Shown in pieces: positions 17,500 to 27,097 of a stretch of DNA of 64,000 bases (positions are counted from its first letter, which is position 1; every line of letters begins with the position of its first letter). Under the pieces are notes generated by a model that had not been told where the DNA came from, ran no database searches, and worked only from the letters and a program-made list of their open reading frames with translations. The position numbers were made by a program, and so were the translations under genes. This DNA comes from Halarcobacter sp. (lineage in GTDB: Bacteria; Campylobacterota; Campylobacteria; Campylobacterales; Arcobacteraceae): positions 608,001-672,000 of the forward strand of contig OY781089.1 in assembly GCA_963676565.1 (NCBI GenBank), written 5' to 3'.

Positions 17500-19032
17500 A
17501 TGGAAGATACTGAACAAATAGACAAAATAGAATTGGTTTATCTAAAAAAAGAAGACCATTTAGAGATTGTACGATTGATGGAAAATGAATATAGACATCT
17601 TGATGATTCAACATGGACTCAAGAGGAGTTTTATGCATTGATTGAAAAGTTTCCAGATGGACAAGTTGGAATTAAAATCAATGATGAATTAGCAGGTTTT
17701 GCTTTATCCATTATTGTTGATTATGATAAATTTGATGACACTCATAGTTATAAAGAGATTACTGGAGATTATAGTTTTAATACCCATGATAAAAATGGAA
17801 ATATGCTTTATGGCGTAGATATTTTTATAAATAAGAAGTTTAGGGGCTTAAGACTTGGAAGAAGACTCTATGAGTTTAGAAAAGAGCTTTGTGAGGAAAA
17901 AAACCTTAAGGGTATTATTTTTGGTGGAAGAATTCCAAACTATGCAAAATATGCAAATGAGATTAGTCCAAAAGAGTATATTCAAAAGGTAAAGTCACGG
18001 GAGATTTATGACCCCGTTTTAAATTTTCAGTTATCAAATGATTTTTATGTAAAAAGGGTTATTAAAAATTATCTTGAAGGTGATATTGAAAGTAAAGAGT
18101 ATGCTTGTCTTTTAAGATGGGATAATATCTATTATTCAAAACCTACAACAAAACCTATGCAAGAAAAGTTAGTAATTAGGTTAGGACTTATTCAATGGCA
18201 AGTAAGACCTTATAAAAATATAGATGAGGTTTTAGAACAAGCAGAGTATTTTGTAAAATCTGTATCAAGCTATAGAAGTGATTTCGCACTTTTCCCAGAG
18301 TTTTTCAATGCCCCTTTAATGGCTAAATATAATCATCTTAGTGAAGCAGATGCCATTAGAAAACTTGCAGAATATACACCACAGTTTAAAGATGCTTTCT
18401 CTTCTCTTGCAATCTCTTATAATATAAATATTATAACTGGAAGTATGCCAGAGCTTGTTGATGGTGTACTCCAAAATGTTGGGTTTTTATGTAAAAGAGA
18501 TGGAACTATTGAAAGGTATGCAAAAATTCATGTAACGCCAGATGAAGAAAAAGTTTGGGGATTACAAGGTTCAAATGAGATTAAAACCTTTGATACTGAT
18601 TGTGGGAAAATTGGAATTTTGATTTGTTATGATTCTGAATTTCCAGAATTAAGTAGATTACTAGCAAATGATGGTATGAATATACTTTTTGTTCCTTTTT
18701 TAACGGATACCCAGAATGGTTACTCAAGAGTTAGGGTATGTGCACAAGCAAGAGCCGTTGAAAACGAATGTTATGTTGCTATTGCAGGATGTGTAGGTAA
18801 CCTTCCAAAAGTTAGTAATATGGATATACAATACGCACAATCAGCGGTATTTACACCTTGTGACTTTGCTTTTCCCTCAAATGGTATAAAAGCAGAATCA
18901 ACGCCTAACACAGAGATGATTTTAATTGCGGATGTTGATTTAGAATTATTAAAAGAGTTACATAATATTGGAAGTGTAAATAATTTAAAAGATAGAAGAA
19001 CAGATATTTATGATGTGATTAGAAAAAACTAA
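17500..19032 (+). CDS. GNAT acetyltransferase / carbon-nitrogen hydrolase fusion
   Basis: FRGLRLGRRL GNAT motif; FPEF, K-I-H, ICYDSEFPE nitrilase triad. Confidence 0.9.
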   Translation: MEDTEQIDKIELVYLKKEDHLEIVRLMENEYRHLDDSTWTQEEFYALIEKFPDGQVGIKINDELAGFALSIIVDYDKFDDTHSYKEITGDYSFNTHDKNGNMLYGVDIFINKKFRGLRLGRRLYEFRKELCEEKNLKGIIFGGRIPNYAKYANEISPKEYIQKVKSREIYDPVLNFQLSNDFYVKRVIKNYLEGDIESKEYACLLRWDNIYYSKPTTKPMQEKLVIRLGLIQWQVRPYKNIDEVLEQAEYFVKSVSSYRSDFALFPEFFNAPLMAKYNHLSEADAIRKLAEYTPQFKDAFSSLAISYNINIITGSMPELVDGVLQNVGFLCKRDGTIERYAKIHVTPDEEKVWGLQGSNEIKTFDTDCGKIGILICYDSEFPELSRLLANDGMNILFVPFLTDTQNGYSRVRVCAQARAVENECYVAIAGCVGNLPKVSNMDIQYAQSAVFTPCDFAFPSNGIKAESTPNTEMILIADVDLELLKELHNIGSVNNLKDRRTDIYDVIRKN

Positions 19033-20435: not shown

Positions 20436-20545
20436 GTAAGTCCTTAGTAATAAATAAAGAAAATATTACGTATTATTGTTAAATTTTACTTAAAAGAAAA
20501 TATTATAAATATATAAATTTGTTATTAATAGATATTATATAAAGA

Positions 20546-20620
20546 TGGTGGTCGTAACTGGATTTGAACCAGTGACCACCACCATGTCAAGGTGGCACTC
20601 TACCACTGAGTTATACGACC
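20546..20620 (-). tRNA. trnV: tRNA-Val(GAC), integrase-proximal copy (att repeat)
   Basis: Cloverleaf GGTCGTA...CCACC-TTGACAT-GGTGG...TTCAAATC...TACGACC-ACCA with encoded CCA. Confidence 0.95.
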
Positions 20621-20654
20621 AGTTCGACGTTTGGTAGACTGTAAGTACTAAAGG

Positions 20655-20676
20655 TACACACAAACGATACACAAAA
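20655..20676 (+). repeat. 22-bp direct repeat, left copy; putative integrase arm-type site
   Basis: TACACACAAACGATACACAAAA, identical at 26849-26870. Confidence 0.8.
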
Positions 20677-20708
20677 GGGCTTCAAGAATAAACACTTGGA
20701 GTTATTTT

Positions 20709-21923
20709 ATGAGCACGACCCTATCATATTTGAAGTCATCAACTAATGGCTTTTTTAAGTATAGAAGAAGAACCCCTAAACTACTTGAAGAGATTATAGG
20801 TTCAAGAGAAGTAATTAAAGCCCTAGGAACAAATGAAACTCAAGCTATTACTAAAGCAATAAAACTTAATAACCTCATCAATGAAGCTGTTGAGTTAAGT
20901 AAGATACAGTCTATACCTAAAGAGACTATTATAGAGTTACTAAAGAGTGAACTAAAGTTAACCACAAAGAAAACAAAAGAACAGAAAAAGAAACTATCAT
21001 ATTTCATTAAGTTATATCTTGAGCAATCTAATGTGACAGATAAAGAGTATAGATATAGAGAGTATTTCTTTAATGAATACTTACCATTACTTATAGAGGT
21101 TTTATTCAAGAAAAGAGATTTAGATATAGAAGAACTTACTTACGACAAGCTCTTAAAGATAAGAACATTATTTATGAAGCTACCTAGTAGGAACTTTTAT
21201 AAGTATAGAGTTGTAAATCAACTAGAGTTAGTCTCAAAGGTCAATAAAGGGACTCTAAAGATAGCTAAAGAACATTTACTATCAGAAGATACAATAAACA
21301 AGAACCTAAAGAGGATAAAGTCACTACTATTTTTTGCAAAAGAACTTAATTGCTATAGTCATAACATACCTAAAACACTTGTAATCAATCGTAAAGGAGA
21401 TACCTCATCAAGAGGAGAGAAAGCAATACTAACAAAGGATGACCTAGAGATTGTCTTTAGTCACACTAATGATGACCTTAAGTACCTATATGAAGTATCT
21501 TATTACTCAGGGATGAGAAGGTCAGAGTTGTATAAATGTAATATAGTAGACTATGAAGGTGTCTTATGCTTTGACCTAAAGAACATTACAGAAAGACTAA
21601 AGACAAGTTCAAGTTATAGACTTATTCCTATCCATAGTAAGTTACTTTATAGAATAAATGAGTTTAAGGACATTATAGAGAATACTAAAGCTGGCTGGAT
21701 TAGTAATAGTTTTAGTAGATTAGTTAAGAGGTCATTTAAAGATACAAAAGGCAAGTCTTTATATTCACTAAGACATACATTTGCTACTAATCTTATAGCC
21801 AATAAAGTTAATCCTGAGGTTATATCTGAACTTATGGGACACTCACACTCTACAATGACTATGAGTAGATATGTTAAAGGTTACCCTATTGAAACCCTTA
21901 GAGAGGCTATAGAATGTCTATAG
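20709..21923 (+). CDS. Tyrosine recombinase/integrase with N-terminal arm-binding-like domain
   Basis: YSGMRRSE (R), LKT (K), YSLRHTFAT, LMGH, MSRY; N-terminal YRRRTP...KALGT. Confidence 0.95.
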   Translation: MSTTLSYLKSSTNGFFKYRRRTPKLLEEIIGSREVIKALGTNETQAITKAIKLNNLINEAVELSKIQSIPKETIIELLKSELKLTTKKTKEQKKKLSYFIKLYLEQSNVTDKEYRYREYFFNEYLPLLIEVLFKKRDLDIEELTYDKLLKIRTLFMKLPSRNFYKYRVVNQLELVSKVNKGTLKIAKEHLLSEDTINKNLKRIKSLLFFAKELNCYSHNIPKTLVINRKGDTSSRGEKAILTKDDLEIVFSHTNDDLKYLYEVSYYSGMRRSELYKCNIVDYEGVLCFDLKNITERLKTSSSYRLIPIHSKLLYRINEFKDIIENTKAGWISNSFSRLVKRSFKDTKGKSLYSLRHTFATNLIANKVNPEVISELMGHSHSTMTMSRYVKGYPIETLREAIECL

Positions 21924-21929
21924 TCTCTT
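21901..21929 (+). other. 13-bp RNA hairpin over the integrase stop codon
   Basis: AGAGGCTATAGA-ATG-TCTATAGTCTCT, with G.U pairs. Confidence 0.55.
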
Positions 21930-21985
21930 ATAGAGGTTAGGTTAATCAATGTCACTAAGACCAATAAAATACAAAGGATAAAACA

Positions 21986-22261
21986 ATGATGTATATTGAA
22001 TTAGAAAGTATAGGACAAATGTTAAGAGTTGTAGATGGTAGTCTATGTATTGGAAATGAGGATGGTGAAGGAGTTTATGTAGATGAGCTTAGAAGCTCTA
22101 AAGGTAGAGAAATATACAAAAAGGTTAGTGAGTTAGAAAAAGAGCTTGTAGGTGCCCTTACAGAGCTTAAAGATATTGCTATTGATAAGGTAAAAAGAAA
22201 TGAGTTAGAGGGAGTTATAGAAGGCTTAGAGGCAGACTTTAAGAGTCTAATTGATTTTTAA
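21986..22261 (+). CDS. Hypothetical phage-like protein (91 aa)
   Basis: AAAGGA SD; C-terminal amphipathic helix. Confidence 0.7.
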   Translation: MMYIELESIGQMLRVVDGSLCIGNEDGEGVYVDELRSSKGREIYKKVSELEKELVGALTELKDIAIDKVKRNELEGVIEGLEADFKSLIDF

Positions 22262-22302
22262 ATGAAAACATATATAATAATATTTATTTTTAAGGAGAAG
22301 AC

Positions 22303-22659
22303 TTGGACAAATATTTAAGTATTGTACTTCCAATATTATCTGCATTAGTTATTTATTATACCTTCACTAAAAATAATGAAAATGAGGATAATAAAATATT
22401 AATCACAGAGTTTAATGGGCAAAAAGTTATTTTAGCTAACTGGAGTAAAGATAAATATATAAGAAGTGGCTATTATAAAGGACATTGTTATGTTTTTCCT
22501 ATTGAACATAAAGTGACATATCAATATGTAAATACAGAATATAAAGATTTACTAGCAAAAGAAAATATGATTGGACTAAAAGAAAGTAGTAGAGATTGTT
22601 TTTCTAGAGTTAGATTATTATATGATAAACCTAACGAACTAAAACCTATGAAGTTTTAA
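22303..22659 (+). CDS. Hypothetical N-terminally membrane-anchored protein (118 aa)
   Basis: AAGGAG SD with TTG start; one hydrophobic segment; more AT-rich than its neighbours. Confidence 0.65.
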   Translation: MDKYLSIVLPILSALVIYYTFTKNNENEDNKILITEFNGQKVILANWSKDKYIRSGYYKGHCYVFPIEHKVTYQYVNTEYKDLLAKENMIGLKESSRDCFSRVRLLYDKPNELKPMKF

Positions 22660-22701
22660 CTTCTAAGATAACTGTTCAGTTCAAAGCTTATCTACTTACT
22701 T

Positions 22702-22743
22702 AAAGAAAAGAGGTCTGTAAGTCCACTTTACAGCTCTTCTTTT
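22702..22743 (+). terminator. Hairpin with T tract upstream of the tandem promoter-like motifs
   Basis: AAAAGAG..CTGTAA-GTCCACT-TTACAG-CTCTTCTTTT. Confidence 0.5.
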
Positions 22744-22810
22744 AATTTACCCTAATACTTTTATTACCTAACAACTAAAAAGCCTTGTAGCCTCCTCACA
22801 GAATATTTAT

Positions 22811-22904
22811 TAAAGATAACGACCTATAGGAGAGGACTTAATTTAGCAATCTCAGCAAATCCCTTAATTAAGGCTTTTTCTTAAGAGTGCCACCTATAGG
22901 AGGA
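22811..22904 (+). promoter_or_regulatory. Tandem T7-like phage RNA polymerase promoter-like motifs
   Basis: ACCTATAGGAG at 22822 and 22892 (70 bp apart), each preceded by a TTAA AT-rich block. Confidence 0.5.
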
Positions 22905-22974
22905 AAACCAAGAATGGACACTCTAGGAATAAACTATCTAAAAACTAAAATCAAAATCATAAAAGGAGGTTCAG

Positions 22975-23454
22975 ATGAACAACAATCAAACACAACTAAA
23001 AGAAGTTGTAATGTTTACTGATGGCTCTTGTTTAGATAATGGTAGAAATGGAACTGGAGGATACTGTGCATTACTACAGACACCAAACAAGAAACATCAA
23101 AAGATAATTAAAGGTAGTGAGTTAGATACTACGAACAATCGTATGGAGATAACAGCTATCATAGAAGGGCTTAAGGCAATTAAAAAGCCTTCTAAAGTTA
23201 CAGTTTATAGTGACTCAAACATCACTGTAAGAGCTATTAATGAATGGCTTGAAAGATGGATAAGGAAGAACTTTAGGAAGGTTGCTAATGTTGACCTTTG
23301 GAAAGAGTATTTAGAGGTATCAGCTAAACATCAAGTTAAGGCTATATGGGTTAAAGCTCATAGTGGTATTTATGAGAATGAACTTGTAGATGATATAGCT
23401 AGAAGTGAGGCTATGAAGTTGCATGGCAAGAGAGGTATTCATTATGGGTACTAA
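22975..23454 (+). CDS. Ribonuclease HI (element-borne)
   Basis: FTDGSC, TTNNRME, YSDS, NVDLW, WVKAHSG, NELVD; AGGAGG SD. Confidence 0.95.
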   Translation: MNNNQTQLKEVVMFTDGSCLDNGRNGTGGYCALLQTPNKKHQKIIKGSELDTTNNRMEITAIIEGLKAIKKPSKVTVYSDSNITVRAINEWLERWIRKNFRKVANVDLWKEYLEVSAKHQVKAIWVKAHSGIYENELVDDIARSEAMKLHGKRGIHYGY

Positions 23455-24694
23455 GATTACTATAATTGATGGAGTATGTGGCTCAGGAAAGAGTCAAGGT
23501 ATTATAAAACAAATGAAAGAACAAAGCTATAAGAAGTGGATTTGTTTTACTCAGTTCATTAGTGAATGTCATAGATACGCTGGAACTCAACCTATATCTA
23601 AGAAGAATGATGAACCAAAGAGAAGGAAAGATGGAACTTTAATCTATGATGAACCATCAGAGTTTAACTGTTCAGAGCTAGAGTTCAAACATCCACTGAG
23701 AAAAGGTAGAGGTCAGAAGAAAGAGGACTTAATAGAACTCCTTAAACAAAGAGAAAACATAGTTACAACCCATCAAATGCTTACAAACATAGGTTCAGAT
23801 GTACAAGAGTTAATCTCTGAGTTGTCTTATGTAGCTGTACTTGATGAAGTTGTAGACCCTATACAAGAGTATAAGATTACATCAAACAACAAAAAGGAAC
23901 TCTTTGAGCATGAGTATGTCTATCTATCTGATGATGGAGTGACCTTATGTTGGAACTATGAGAAATACCCTGATAGAAAGAAGGGAGATAACTTCTACAA
24001 AGAGAAACAGTTGATTGATAGTGGAAACTTAATCCTTTTAGATGGTAGTATTTATCTGTGGGAAATGTCAGAGAGTCTCTTCAACTCATTTACAGAGGTT
24101 TACATACTTACATATCAGTTTGAAGGTTCTCCATTGATGTGGTTCTTTAAAGCTAAAGGGATAAAGTATGAAGTACACTATAAACCTAAAGCTAATGTAA
24201 AGTATGGAGACCTAATCAATATCATTGAAGATGAAAGACTAAACTCTATTGGAGATAGTCCCAACTTCTTATCTTCAAACCGAACTAGAAAGTTATCTCA
24301 AGGAGAAATAAGAGACCTTAAAGCTAATCTAAACCATCTAAGAAAAAGAGTATGGAATGATGGGGAAGATAGAATGTGGACTTGTTTAGGTAGTGCTAAA
24401 GATGACTTAGGTGTTAATGGGTGGAAGAAAGGATTTGTACCATTCAACATTAGGGGCTCTAATGACTATAGACAAGTTAAGAACTGTGCTTACTTGTTCA
24501 ATGTATTTCTAAACCCAAACATCACTAAGTACTTTAGTAAGTATGATGTGACAGTTGATGAAGATACTTATGCTCTTAACAGTTTACTTCAATGGTTGTT
24601 TAGGTCTAGGCTAAGAGATGGTAAGTCAGTTAGTGTCTATATCCCCTCAAAGAGGATGAGGGAACTACTTAAAGAGTGGTGTAGACATAACTAA
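23444..24694 (+). CDS. Compact SF2-like P-loop helicase/replication protein; probable start 23444
   Basis: Walker A DGVCGSGKS, VTTH, Walker B VLDEV, ILTY, motif VI-like QWLFRSRLR; overlaps the RNase H stop. Confidence 0.7.
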   Translation: MGTKITIIDGVCGSGKSQGIIKQMKEQSYKKWICFTQFISECHRYAGTQPISKKNDEPKRRKDGTLIYDEPSEFNCSELEFKHPLRKGRGQKKEDLIELLKQRENIVTTHQMLTNIGSDVQELISELSYVAVLDEVVDPIQEYKITSNNKKELFEHEYVYLSDDGVTLCWNYEKYPDRKKGDNFYKEKQLIDSGNLILLDGSIYLWEMSESLFNSFTEVYILTYQFEGSPLMWFFKAKGIKYEVHYKPKANVKYGDLINIIEDERLNSIGDSPNFLSSNRTRKLSQGEIRDLKANLNHLRKRVWNDGEDRMWTCLGSAKDDLGVNGWKKGFVPFNIRGSNDYRQVKNCAYLFNVFLNPNITKYFSKYDVTVDEDTYALNSLLQWLFRSRLRDGKSVSVYIPSKRMRELLKEWCRHN

Positions 24695-24701
24695 AACTAC
24701 T

Positions 24702-25000
24702 AATGGACACAAAGTGTGAAGCTAAAAGTGTCCAATATGAAAGTTAAACCCCTATTGATGGTATCTACAGAGGTTTATCTGTAAAGAACAACAATCTTAA
24801 ATACTTTAAGTAGAGACTAACGGATAACTTTACTTGATGGTTAATCTAGATGACCTATAAATTAATTAATATAGAAATGAGTTTAGGTTAAAGGTATAGT
24901 AGTCCTAAATGTAGCGCTATAACTAGACCTTAATCTCATTTCTAAACAATCATAAGCTTAGAGTCAATACTTAAGAGATGACTATAGATTGACTTTAAGT
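24702..25000 (+). other. Structured non-coding region (inverted repeat and two long hairpins); candidate origin or RNA element
   Basis: TGGACAC/GTGTCCA 24704-24734; stems 24872-24944 and 24956-25000. Confidence 0.45.
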
Positions 25001-25059
25001 AACTACTTCACTACGTGTGTCTTTTATACTATCTATTCTATTTCTTAATATTAATTCAT

Positions 25060-25899
25060 TTAATCCTCTAAAGTCTTTTTTTGTCTATATTTAGAAATTA
25101 ATATAGTTGCGACTATTGAACTTCCAACTCCTAAAATAAAACTTAATGCATTTTGTAATAGTATGTCATACCAAGATTGTGATTTAATAGCCTCTTTAAA
25201 AGACTCAATTTGTTGTTCAGTAAGCTTTTCTAATTCTTTTGCCTTATTATATTCTTGTTCAATTATTTTCTTTGCTTTTTGTGTTTTCTGCATATCTTCT
25301 TTAATATCATTTAGTTGAACCTCTAAGTCTTTTAGATTTCCTATTGCAAGTTCTACATTTTGTATTTTTTTCTCTAAAGTTGGTTTTTGGATTTTTAAAG
25401 TAAAAGAAAATAATAAAAGTAAAACTGAAATAATTGATACAAAAGAAGAAATAGTTAATATTCTATTTTGTGTTAAAGAACGTTTTTTTGCTACTTTAAT
25501 CTGTTTAATATTTATTTTATCATTTTTAGTTAAAGTAATAAGTTCTTCTACATCTACTATCTTTATTTTTGCAATTGATAAAGCATTCTTTTCAACTTCC
25601 TTTTTTAATAAATCATCAGCTCTTTTTGTTAATTTTCCTGATGTTATCAATATAAAAACTTTAATTTTAGGAGTAAGTGAAAGTAACTTAAAAAAGATTT
25701 TAATATAATCAATATCAATACTCTTATGATGTTTAATTTCTATAGCAACTGTTCCATTATTTGCAATTAAGTCAAAACTGCCATCTAAGTTATACTCATA
25801 ATTATAAACATCAGGAGCAATATTTTTAATATTACTTAAACAAAAATCTTCAAACTCTTCTCCAGTTAATGCATATAAATCTTCTTTTGTGTATTTCAT
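25060..25899 (-). CDS. Mrr-like PD-(D/E)xK endonuclease domain + TM + coiled coil + TM (putative defence cargo)
   Basis: GEEFEDF, DGSFD, IEIK, ILITSGKLT, IKIVDVEEL; two hydrophobic segments flanking a heptad-rich region; own TATAAT and GGAG SD. Confidence 0.7.
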   Translation of the reverse strand: MKYTKEDLYALTGEEFEDFCLSNIKNIAPDVYNYEYNLDGSFDLIANNGTVAIEIKHHKSIDIDYIKIFFKLLSLTPKIKVFILITSGKLTKRADDLLKKEVEKNALSIAKIKIVDVEELITLTKNDKINIKQIKVAKKRSLTQNRILTISSFVSIISVLLLLFSFTLKIQKPTLEKKIQNVELAIGNLKDLEVQLNDIKEDMQKTQKAKKIIEQEYNKAKELEKLTEQQIESFKEAIKSQSWYDILLQNALSFILGVGSSIVATILISKYRQKKTLED

Positions 25900-26112
25900 T
25901 TATTCTCCAATTATAACTATAAGTATTATAACTTTTAGACTCTTAATAATTTATACTTTATTTTAAGATTATTGTAGCGAAGAGGCTCCTATAAGTGACA
26001 CCATAGAGACACTTATGACACAGTTGAAGATGACTGGAACTGTTCAAGAAACTCATGTGTGAGTGATTACAGTAGCTCTTATAGTAGTACAAGTGATTTC
26101 TAGGAGGTGACT

Positions 26113-26346
26113 ATGAAAATATTAGAGATTGTAGATAAAAAGATAGCTGAACTTGAAGCAGAAGTTAAATACTTTGAGGAGTCATTTGAAGGATGGCATG
26201 AAGAGATTGAGAAGGAAGGTTACCCTATTGCTGGAGATTTCTTTGGTCATTCTGATGACTGCTTTGATATGGGTATAGAGTATGGTGAAGGTCTAAAAGC
26301 TAGAGAGACTTTAACGTTTTTGAAGAAACTTAGAGGAGGTGAATAA
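26113..26346 (+). CDS. Hypothetical acidic phage-like protein; probable ATG start at 26113
   Basis: AGGAGG SD; TAATG coupling to the next gene. Confidence 0.65.
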   Translation: MKILEIVDKKIAELEAEVKYFEESFEGWHEEIEKEGYPIAGDFFGHSDDCFDMGIEYGEGLKARETLTFLKKLRGGE

Positions 26347-26813
26347 TGGAGTTAATTAAAGTAGATATTAGTGAAGAAGTTGTAGTAGAGGTTCAGCCAC
26401 ACGAAGAGCATGAATGGTTGTTGTCAAGTAAAGATGTGGCTGAGGGTTATGGTTTGAGTGCTAGTGGTTTGAGAATGACTAAAAAGAGATACTCAGATGA
26501 ACTAGAAGAAGGTGTACATTTTATCAATGTCACAAATAGTGATATTGGTGGCAGACCCTCAGTTTATTGGACTAAAGAAGGTGTAGTAATGTTAGGGTTC
26601 TTCATTAAGACACCTACAGCTAAAGAGTTTAGAAGATGGGCTTCAAACTTTATTGTTGAGAAGAGTAAAGAACCAAAAGCTCCAGCTGTACCTCAGACAT
26701 ACCTAGAGGCACTTCAAGCTCACTTAGAGTCAGTACAACAACTTGAAGAGGCTAATAAGGTAATTGCTTTACAAAAAATAGTAAAAATATCTGAAAGGAC
26801 ATATACGTATTAG
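26346..26813 (+). CDS. Phage antirepressor-like DNA-binding protein (ORF6N/BRO-N-like), apparently lacking its C-terminal domain
   Basis: DVAEGYG, ELEEGVHF, WTKEGVVMLGFFIKTPTAKEFRRWA, linker PQTYLEAL. Confidence 0.7.
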   Translation: MELIKVDISEEVVVEVQPHEEHEWLLSSKDVAEGYGLSASGLRMTKKRYSDELEEGVHFINVTNSDIGGRPSVYWTKEGVVMLGFFIKTPTAKEFRRWASNFIVEKSKEPKAPAVPQTYLEALQAHLESVQQLEEANKVIALQKIVKISERTYTY

Positions 26814-26848
26814 AGCAGATTAATTTTCCCCCGTAGGGTATCAAAAGA

Positions 26849-26900
26849 TACACACAAACGATACACAAAAATGCAAAAGGTACACAAAAAAGTGTGTATC
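26849..26900. repeat. Right-hand cluster of putative integrase arm-type sites
   Basis: 22-bp repeat copy, an extra GGTACACAAAA (26879) and an inverted GTGTGTATC (26892). Confidence 0.75.
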
Positions 26901-26993
26901 ATTCAGCTATAATTAAGTTTTTGTTAAGATTGTAAATGTTAAAGTTTTGGACTTGAAAGTCCTATTTGAAGGTATCTAGGAGTCAATCTTAAG

Positions 26994-27068
26994 TGGTGGT
27001 CGTAACTGGATTTGAACCAGTGACCACCACCATGTCAAGGTGGCACTCTACCACTGAGTTATACGACC
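26994..27068 (-). tRNA. trnV: tRNA-Val(GAC), copy retaining the host upstream region
   Basis: Identical to 20546-20620; -10-like GATAAT upstream at 27082-27087 (minus strand). Confidence 0.95.
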
Positions 27069-27097
27069 AAAAGAGTGAAATATTATCTTATTAGAAC

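Follow-up and report, generated by a model that had tools for sequence, protein, structure and literature searches.

An integrative element between two tRNA-Val genes

The window, by which we mean the whole 64-kb stretch of Halarcobacter sp. DNA analysed here, contains exactly two tRNA genes, both for tRNA-Val(GAC) and both on the minus strand (20546-20620 and 26994-27068 by ARAGORN), and between them lies a compact element of phage-type genes that is the subject of this report. A repeat search placed the two genes in the arms of a 76-nt direct repeat, which are 100% identical and spaced 6448 bp from start to start, in agreement with the 6448-bp unit between two tRNA-Val copies that a first-pass annotation of this DNA had described. 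The insertion site is flanked by a DctP-type gene and an asparagine synthase gene. Open reading frame (ORF) calls and family matches give the gene order that the annotation had read, from the integrase, whose gene starts 88 nt from the left attachment site (attL), to the arm repeats before the right one (attR) (Table 1). The arm repeats at 20650-20676 and 26844-26870 are 96% identical, a C-run lies at about 26828, and GATACACA-type repeats are found inside both ends in all five of the closely related elements considered below.

The integrase, RNase HI and helicase genes are intact in the window element, including catalytic-type motifs, and every backbone gene that can be assigned is phage-type by PHROGs and by comparison with phage records. 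The Ant-like protein has its closest phage relatives in phages of Nitratiruptor and Campylobacter (36-48% identity). The 91-residue acidic ORF is 47-79% identical to its counterparts of 85-91 residues in the family but matched nothing in Pfam, PHROGs or NCBIfam, and its AlphaFold model (pLDDT 67, pTM 0.38) was too poor for a fold search. Among the 8 ORFs scanned with Pfam, PHROGs, NCBIfam and PADLOC there was no match to capsid, terminase, primase, polymerase, relaxase or AlpA families, as had been claimed; because three small ORFs are unassigned, this holds at the sensitivity of profile scans. The hairpin and T-run in front of the conserved non-coding block were not called by a terminator scan, only tRNAs passed in an Rfam scan of the island (HPnc0260 reached 48.5 bits, below its threshold of 59), and a search of the whole-island DNA against phage and plasmid records matched the tRNA alone.

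Table 1. Features of the element, in coordinates of the window
Position	Strand	Feature	Basis
20546..20621	-	attL, complete tRNA-Val(GAC) copy, left arm of the 76-nt repeat	ARAGORN, repeat search, Rfam tRNA 73.2 bits
20650..20676	+	Left arm-type repeat (GGTACACACAAACGATACACAAAA)	Repeat search
20709..21923	+	Tyrosine integrase, 404 aa	Phage_integrase PF00589 3.2e-12; phrog_1 3.4e-30; DUF6538 below cutoff
21986..22261	+	Small acidic ORF, 91 aa	Present in all five close elements as a core gene
22303..22659	+	Cargo slot 1: 118-aa ORF, GC 0.286	Unique to this element; no homolog in the other four close elements
22696..22805	+	Hairpin and T-run (terminator-like, by eye), then non-coding block	Block conserved in all five elements
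22813-22832, 22883-22902, degenerate 22910-22929	+, towards RNase H	Tandem 20-nt motifs, AAGAG..N7..YTATAGGAG	Pattern scans; third by eye
22975..23454	+	RNase HI, 159 aa	PF00075 2.7e-37; NCBIfam RNase HI 155.8 bits against a cutoff of 160
23423..24694	+	YonV-family superfamily 2 (SF2) helicase, 423 aa, P-loop	phrog_2467 2.5e-62, residues 8-420
24695..25059	+	Hairpin-rich spacer, conserved, non-coding	Candidate origin, packaging site or RNA
25060..25899	-	Cargo slot 2: 279-aa protein, N-terminal Mrr_cat nuclease domain	Pfam Mrr_cat
26107..26346	+	Acidic ORF, 79 aa	ORF call; no Pfam or PHROGs match
26346..26813	+	Ant/Bro-N-like regulator, 155 aa	phrog_63 9.1e-11; Pfam Bro-N 21.8 bits, below cutoff 25.6
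26823..26900	+	C-run and right-hand arm repeats, GATACACA copies direct and inverted	Repeat search, reading of the sequence
26994..27069	-	attR, second complete tRNA-Val(GAC) copy	ARAGORN, repeat search, Rfam

Precise insertion at tRNA-Val and movement between species

Two empty sites indicate that the discrete integrative element proposed by the first-pass annotation has been mobile recently. The genome G010, from the same genus, has the same neighbours (88-90% identical) around a single tRNA-Val with nothing inserted. A contig of the public run X3, which has the organism label and study of the best-matching run and comes from a different sample, joins position 20545 to 26994 and skips 6448 bp; the 76 letters of the repeat could be assigned to either side, and the aligned 246 and 212 nt contain 0-1 mismatches. 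As far as such comparisons reach, they demonstrate that the element inserts at tRNA-Val and leaves it precisely.

A related element occupies this site in a third species (genome G006), with an integrase region 94% and a core 92% identical to those of the window, whereas the chromosomal flanks are only 75-83% identical. Since the island is so much better conserved than the DNA around it, this pattern establishes, on sequence grounds, that the element has moved between species. An integrase at one end, tRNA-derived repeats at both and an empty site in relatives are the features of a tRNA-integrating island of the tyrosine-recombinase type, and we conclude that this is a site-specific integrative element belonging to a small, apparently undescribed family. 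In another run (X7), a contig of the G006-type island (5411 nt, depth 57.3) occurs beside window-like flanks with depths of about 120-126, which a mixed sample and partial loss fit alike. The public runs listed for this DNA include no RNA run.

The run with the empty site also holds pieces of the island at 100% identity, amounting to about 22% of its words (window 22882-23032 and 25638-26991), that is, the motif array with the beginning of RNase H, and the part running from the cargo gene through to the right arm. Their presence suggests that X3 may hold a second, related element with another integrase elsewhere in its genome.

A family with one backbone and exchangeable modules

Relatives were found by searching with the helicase protein and the island DNA, and the synteny of the element genes held throughout: the same order occurs in five close elements, namely those of the window, of G006, of a Halarcobacter ebronensis metagenome-assembled genome (MAG) sequence (G005), of an Arcobacter sp. 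MAG (L017, the same as G422) and of a metagenome contig (L177). In that sequence, their bounding repeats measure 76, 76, 48, 58 and 59 nt and correspond to whole or partial tRNA-like genes, and their spacings are 6448, 5437, 8160, 6991 and 8528 bp; the close elements in Arcobacter and Halarcobacter number five or more, with sizes of 5.4-8.5 kb. The common order begins with the integrase, the acidic ORF, a variable slot, a serine resolvase (in three of the five), the hairpin with the conserved non-coding block and the motif array; it continues with RNase HI, the helicase, the conserved spacer, a second variable slot, small ORFs, the Ant/Rha/Bro-N-type protein and attR.

Across subtypes the integrases are 29-47% identical, whereas the RNase H and helicase remain 83-96% identical, and for this reason we regard the elements as mosaics with exchangeable modules. 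The window integrase itself is 98% identical to that of G006 and only 29-36% identical to those of the remaining elements. On these alignments it is clear that the backbone stays the same from one relative to the next and that integrases and cargo are exchanged. The annotation had set the core of the element apart from those of P4, PICI and PLE satellites, and this is supported here for a recurring family; the core is also unlike that of PICMIs, which are discussed below.

The layout reaches beyond the Campylobacterota, since a locus of the gammaproteobacterium Litoribrevibacter euphylliae (L028), the only one with an RNase H gene beside the helicase gene among 158 distant-homolog loci screened, is a 9639-bp unit between tRNA-His repeats with an integrase, two ORFs, a resolvase, a minus-strand KAP NTPase gene, RNase HI, a helicase about 30% identical to ours and a minus-strand gene of 359 codons. 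The pairing of helicase and RNase H in a small island was thus seen only in the present family and at this locus. A sample of 401 genomes of the order contained close helicase homologs in 2. In a large protein collection, 16 helicase clusters were at least 60% identical to the query, and their longest contigs were 1.4-9.5 kb, with one exception of 87.8 kb. All close helicase homologs that could be placed lie in small repeat-bounded elements; the homologs in large phages are distant ones, with at most 38% identity. The outcome that the first-pass annotation had named as refuting its reading, homologs confined to much larger complete prophages, was not what the searches showed.

A second kind of small element (G016; L015 6800-12100) lies beside a tRNA-Cys/Ser/Leu cluster and contains a resolvase, an RNase HI gene 87% identical in DNA to that of the island, an unrelated protein of 265 residues, a regulator and an integrase, with motif-like sequences upstream of RNase H.

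Two cargo slots

Slot 2 of the window element has a GC content of 0.228-0.240, compared with 0.30-0.37 in the rest, and the segment 25038-26007 is precisely absent from the G006 element and from the X7 contig, with 47 nt in its place. When residues 1-140 of its product were scanned alone, Mrr_cat scored 29.3 bits against a cutoff of 21, and the nearest language-model neighbour was a 'Restriction endonuclease' cluster (score 0.96); beyond the nuclease domain, hydrophobic and coiled-coil segments are discernible by eye. Other members carry in slot 1 a KAP NTPase matching the candidate defence family PDC-S20 (4e-78; L028) or a DUF4145/phrog_1305 protein (L017) and in slot 2 AbiH-like fragments (G005, locus L013), the remaining slot genes belonging to no known family. 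PADLOC matched a model to 2 of the 12 family proteins scanned and recognised neither the RNase H nor the helicase. The defence cargo proposed by the first-pass annotation therefore stands for some members as defence-like genes, but for the window element it comes down to a nuclease domain rather than a known system. With most slot genes outside known families, the two slots offer a ready place to seek new anti-phage genes.

An RNase HI and a YonV-type helicase form the conserved core

The RNase HI of the element is only 47% identical to the product of the chromosomal rnhA-like gene. The P-loop protein of 423 residues encoded next to it had no match in the local Pfam copy or among PDB sequences, but PF27199 is present in all 120 helicase homologs listed. 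Its AlphaFold model (pLDDT 87.3) matches XPD/DinG SF2 helicases; in Foldseek the best match was XPD (E 1.6e-07, TM 0.51), followed by DinG and CasDinG, with Hna also among the 91 matches at E <= 0.001. Walker A (GSGKS, Lys-23) and the DE motif (Asp-141, Glu-142) are conserved, and Gln-390, Arg-394 and Arg-398 are invariant. With two RecA-like domains in the model and Walker A, DE and arginine-finger motifs, the protein is, on this structural prediction, an SF2 helicase.

Its namesake is YonV of the Bacillus phage SPbeta (phrog_2467/PF27199), to which it is homologous over its full length (30% identity over 97% of the length). Unlike the element helicase, YonV and most of its relatives are encoded by single genes in large phages, often beside a gene for a YonO-type polymerase. 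Phage records matching the helicase number 56, none of them reaching 60% identity; those listed, 30 in all, range from 86 to 134 kb and include SPbeta yonV, and none of these 30 is a T7-sized phage. Among viral contigs in IMG/VR, 566 of 582 stretches were confirmed as helicase relatives. Relatives of the RNase HI, like those of the helicase, were likewise found in large phages (83-640 kb for the two together).

The spacer behind the helicase gene is conserved even in the most diverged of the close elements. The segment 24690-25060 folds better than its shuffled versions (z-score -2.98, with 1 of 100 shuffles as good), and 2 of its 26 predicted pairs show a compensatory change.

A YonO homolog lies near the helicase gene in 45 of the 158 loci (L019-L176), at a median gap of 853 nt and, in 38 of the 45, downstream on the same strand. 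This count overstates the number of independent events because the phages are interrelated, but the linkage persists at 20-46% YonO identity. YonO is described as the two-barrel single-subunit RNA polymerase of SPbeta, in an account that leaves its promoter and a possible need for other factors open (PMC5467207); given the gene adjacency, the XPD/DinG-fold YonV helicase could be such an extra factor. We set aside an R-loop role for YonO as an explanation of the RNase H, since YonO transcripts are reported in the same source to be RNase H-resistant in vitro, so that nothing about YonO in particular calls for an RNase H partner.

A tandem motif array upstream of the RNase HI gene

Upstream of RNase H each element has 3-4 co-oriented copies of a motif of about 20 nt, AAGAG-N7-(C/T)TATAGGAG and variants; in the window, CCTATAGG motifs lie at 22824 and 22894, inside the 20-nt repeats at 22813-22832 and 22883-22902. 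The number of copies and their internal sequence vary between elements, whereas the flanking DNA is conserved. Counts were made with fixed IUPAC patterns, which miss degenerate copies such as that at 22910-22929. In the five elements the fixed pattern had 2, 4, 4, 3 and 3 matches, in every case as a cluster on the strand of the genes, compared with three single matches in 158 control phage and prophage loci (2.65 Mb). In the whole 3.34-Mb genome there were 9 matches, compared with 5 for a reversed control, and two of them lie next to each other only in the island; a stricter pattern, allowing at most 2 mismatches, gave 5 matches in the window against 1.44 expected. Judged by these counts, the array of tandem copies is genuine, and specific to the element family.

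No sigma-70-like site was found by a simple scan of the plus strand between 22660 and 22975, and the island as a whole has 18 such sites, fewer than its shuffled versions (30.9 +/- 5.2). By eye, the motif fits neither the sigma-54 nor the sigma-28 consensus sequence, and the SPbeta region upstream of yonK does not resemble it. Some copies show a resemblance to the promoters of phage single-subunit polymerases: T7, T3 and SP6 promoters are described as sharing the core CACTATAG at -7 to +1, and a working SP6-like promoter is given as ending in ..TGGACACTATAGGAGGA (PMC13029058), and the island copies read ..TGGACACTCTAGGAATA and ..GCCACCTATAGGAGGA. By our own count, GACACTCTAGGA-type copies agree with the SP6-like ..TGGACACTATAGGAGGA at 14 of 17 positions. 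Several of the copies form palindromes as well (AGAGTG..CACTCT), and a dimeric DNA-binding regulator would fit these equally well.

Comparison with known small elements

Capsid-less satellites of 6-7 kb have precedents (PMC10803314; VEIME preprint, bioRxiv 10.1101/2022.07.26.501625). PICMIs, found in Vibrionaceae, average 6.7 kb and are defined, in the account given in PMC10803314, by an AlpA regulator, a primase (DUF3987/DUF5906) and a location beside fis; their transfer in helper particles is reported there as experimentally shown. By that description the window element resembles them in size class (6.4 against 6.7 kb), in having an integrase and a variable defence gene but no capsid-remodelling or packaging genes, and in its marine host, and we propose by analogy that it may share their way of life. 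Of the four defining features of PICMIs that were compared, three were not found in it, namely AlpA (PF05930/PF12728), the DUF3987/DUF5906 primase and the fis site; in their place it has RNase HI, an SF2 helicase, an Ant-like regulator and insertion in a tRNA gene. VEIMEs are described as small integrative elements of marine bacteria, mostly without capsid genes and with tyrosine and/or serine recombinases (10.1101/2022.07.26.501625), and both recombinase types occur in three of the five close elements and in L028. They differ from the present family, which we describe from sequence, in that their definition in the preprint is by concatemers recovered from virus particles. The term 'RNase H' is absent from the main text of the VEIME preprint, whose supplementary datasets lay outside the comparison and could include a VEIME module with such a core.

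P4-like elements, PICIs, cfPICIs and PLEs have in common with the family an integrase, phage-type regulators and accessory hotspots carrying defence genes. The window element differs in having no matches to capsid, terminase-small-subunit, primase-helicase (Pri-Rep, alpha) or AlpA genes, and is smaller than their mean sizes, listed as 9.5-18 kb (PMC10803314). A core of RNase HI and a YonV-type SF2 helicase was not found described in the literature searched, which excludes the VEIME and PICMI supplementary datasets.

In layout, the closest parallel may be the enterobacterial 'T7 islands' that Chen and Schneider are said to have described in 2006. These reportedly span 4-13 kb between terminal direct repeats, and their integrase gene is followed by two or three promoter-like sites in tandem; they are said to have a small number of non-structural genes of phage type, to lack a gene for a polymerase and to show signs of recombination with one another. 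Our element shares with them the short island with terminal direct repeats and the few non-structural genes of phage type, and the tandem array behind its integrase may be a counterpart of their promoter-like sites; it differs in phylum, in the genes behind the array and in the motif sequence, and its repeats are whole tRNA genes. We know of no experimentally shown helper for either the 'T7 islands' or the present family. Taken by analogy, the element would resemble 'T7 islands' most in layout, and PICMIs and VEIMEs most in its proposed working.

A proposed life cycle on a helper phage

Because they carry only phage-type housekeeping genes together with swappable defence-like cargo, the elements may ride on a helper phage. 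We regard such a satellite as plausible, and we put the probability of the whole reading, a minimal phage 'hitcher' in the manner of PICMIs and VEIMEs, at roughly 0.5. An incoming or induced phage would supply a polymerase or activator that switches on the motif array, in which no host-type promoter can be recognised, and the RNase HI-helicase operon, silent until then, would be expressed. A transcript running into the structured spacer would be cut by RNase H to give a primer, as at ColE1 and T7 origins, where RNA primers are processed, and the excised circle would thus replicate with neither an initiator nor a primase from the element itself. Copies of the element would then leave in the helper's capsids, and the genes of the two slots would protect the host against other phages. 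If this is correct, the family would represent a further minimal form of phage parasitism, made up of an integrase, RNase HI, an SF2 helicase and a regulator without primase, AlpA or packaging gene. To our knowledge, no such element would have been known before in the Campylobacterota.

Several results weigh against this proposal. The search for a helper gave none: in profile searches the complete genome has no match to TerL_ATPase, Terminase_6N or Phage_capsid, and with these three common terminase and capsid families missing, a helper would have to come from outside. There is no close relative of the helicase among the viral contigs in IMG/VR, where the best identity is 38%. No excisionase, AlpA, initiator or primase was recognisable in the ORF scans of the element, and the priming step is drawn from the analogy with ColE1 and T7. 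In run X1, the source of the sequence, the island contig (6432 nt) has a depth of 119.8 and the flanks 104.8 and 140.9; with island and flank depths so similar, there is no sign of amplification, nor was a circular joint reported among the X1 contigs, in which rare forms are dropped, and the contigs of the public runs gave no direct sign of an excised circle, replication or packaging. The family is also rare, with close helicase homologs in 4 of 184 Arcobacteraceae species genomes (besides one 55-residue remnant and one 37% homolog), and two of its five close members look damaged, L017 having lost its RNase HI gene except for the first codons and G005 having a split helicase gene and a short integrase.

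In a more specific version of the satellite proposal, which we consider unlikely as it stands, the helper's own single-subunit polymerase, either T7/SP6-like or of the two-barrel YonO type, would switch the elements on. The array would then consist of decoy promoters of differing specificity, from which RNase HI and helicase would be expressed and an R-loop primer made at the spacer; with that primer made by the helper polymerase at the array, the element would need no initiator, primase or packaging gene. Were this so, the unproven 'T7 island' idea would extend to another phylum and gain a mechanism. A search of 184 genomes of the family with SPbeta YonO, run without a positive control, gave no match.

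Other explanations

The foremost alternative to a satellite is a phage-independent island that would spread by its integrase together with conjugative mobilisation, vesicles or natural transformation, with the RNase H-helicase pair as a maintenance, defence or counter-defence module. It would account directly for the failure to find packaging or capsid genes or a helper; the structured spacer could be an oriT-like site, the XPD/DinG fold includes defence proteins (CasDinG and Hna are among the fold matches), and the cargo genes are defence-like. However, no relaxase or mobilisation gene was found with Pfam, PHROGs or NCBIfam, all assignable backbone genes are phage-type, and the RNase H and helicase went unrecognised by PADLOC. 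It is the pair that is conserved, as the core, and the defence-like genes that vary, which suits a function of the pair in the life cycle. On balance we hold this island to be possible, though on the unlikely side.

The first-pass annotation had favoured a narrower form of the satellite proposal, in which the helper is a T7-like (Autographiviridae) phage and the tandem motifs are promoters for its T7-type polymerase. The motifs are indeed tandem, co-oriented and placed upstream of a phage-type operon, several copies resemble the T7/T3/SP6 core CACTATAG, the GACACTCTAGGA-type copies agree with an SP6-like promoter to the extent counted above, the element has no polymerase gene of its own, and its layout matches that reported for 'T7 islands'. 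What points to a T7-like helper is the resemblance of the motifs to T7 and SP6 promoter cores, yet the exact core occurs in no copy, the copies diverge far more than is usual for promoters within one T7-like phage, and the palindromic ones suit a dimeric DNA-binding protein as well. In a scan of viral contigs with AAGAGTGNNNNCTNTAGGAR, 104 stretches matched; each of the 80 listed had a single match, with no cluster of two or more and no helper candidate, and the number of single matches is close to our estimate of chance. T7-type polymerase (PF00940) was not detected in 25 genomes of the genus, in a search that lacked a working positive control, the control likewise having matched nowhere. The relatives of the helicase and RNase H sit in large phages, and it is a YonO-type rather than a T7-type polymerase gene that accompanies the helicase gene in the 45 loci noted above, while the Ant-like protein points to Nitratiruptor and Campylobacter phages. 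Taken together, this evidence makes an Autographiviridae helper improbable.

That the element is the decayed remnant of a larger prophage, as distant helicase homologs (at most 38% identity) in phages of 85-140 kb and the broken genes of some family members might suggest, is very hard to reconcile with six independent elements of 5.4-9.6 kb, all compact and of one gene order, whose bordering repeats are intact and which occupy four different tRNA-type sites, with the intact integrase, RNase H and helicase of the window element, with scans that found no structural-gene fragments, and with its precise absence from the otherwise identical site in X3.

Further observations

Outside the element, in the window segment 17450-18975, an ORF of 510 residues with GNAT and carbon-nitrogen hydrolase domains (17500-19032) has no counterpart in the otherwise collinear region of G010. 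In the 36.6-kb plasmid NZ_CP043618.1 of Sulfurimonas lithotrophica, two places are 92% identical to the tRNA-Val of the element.

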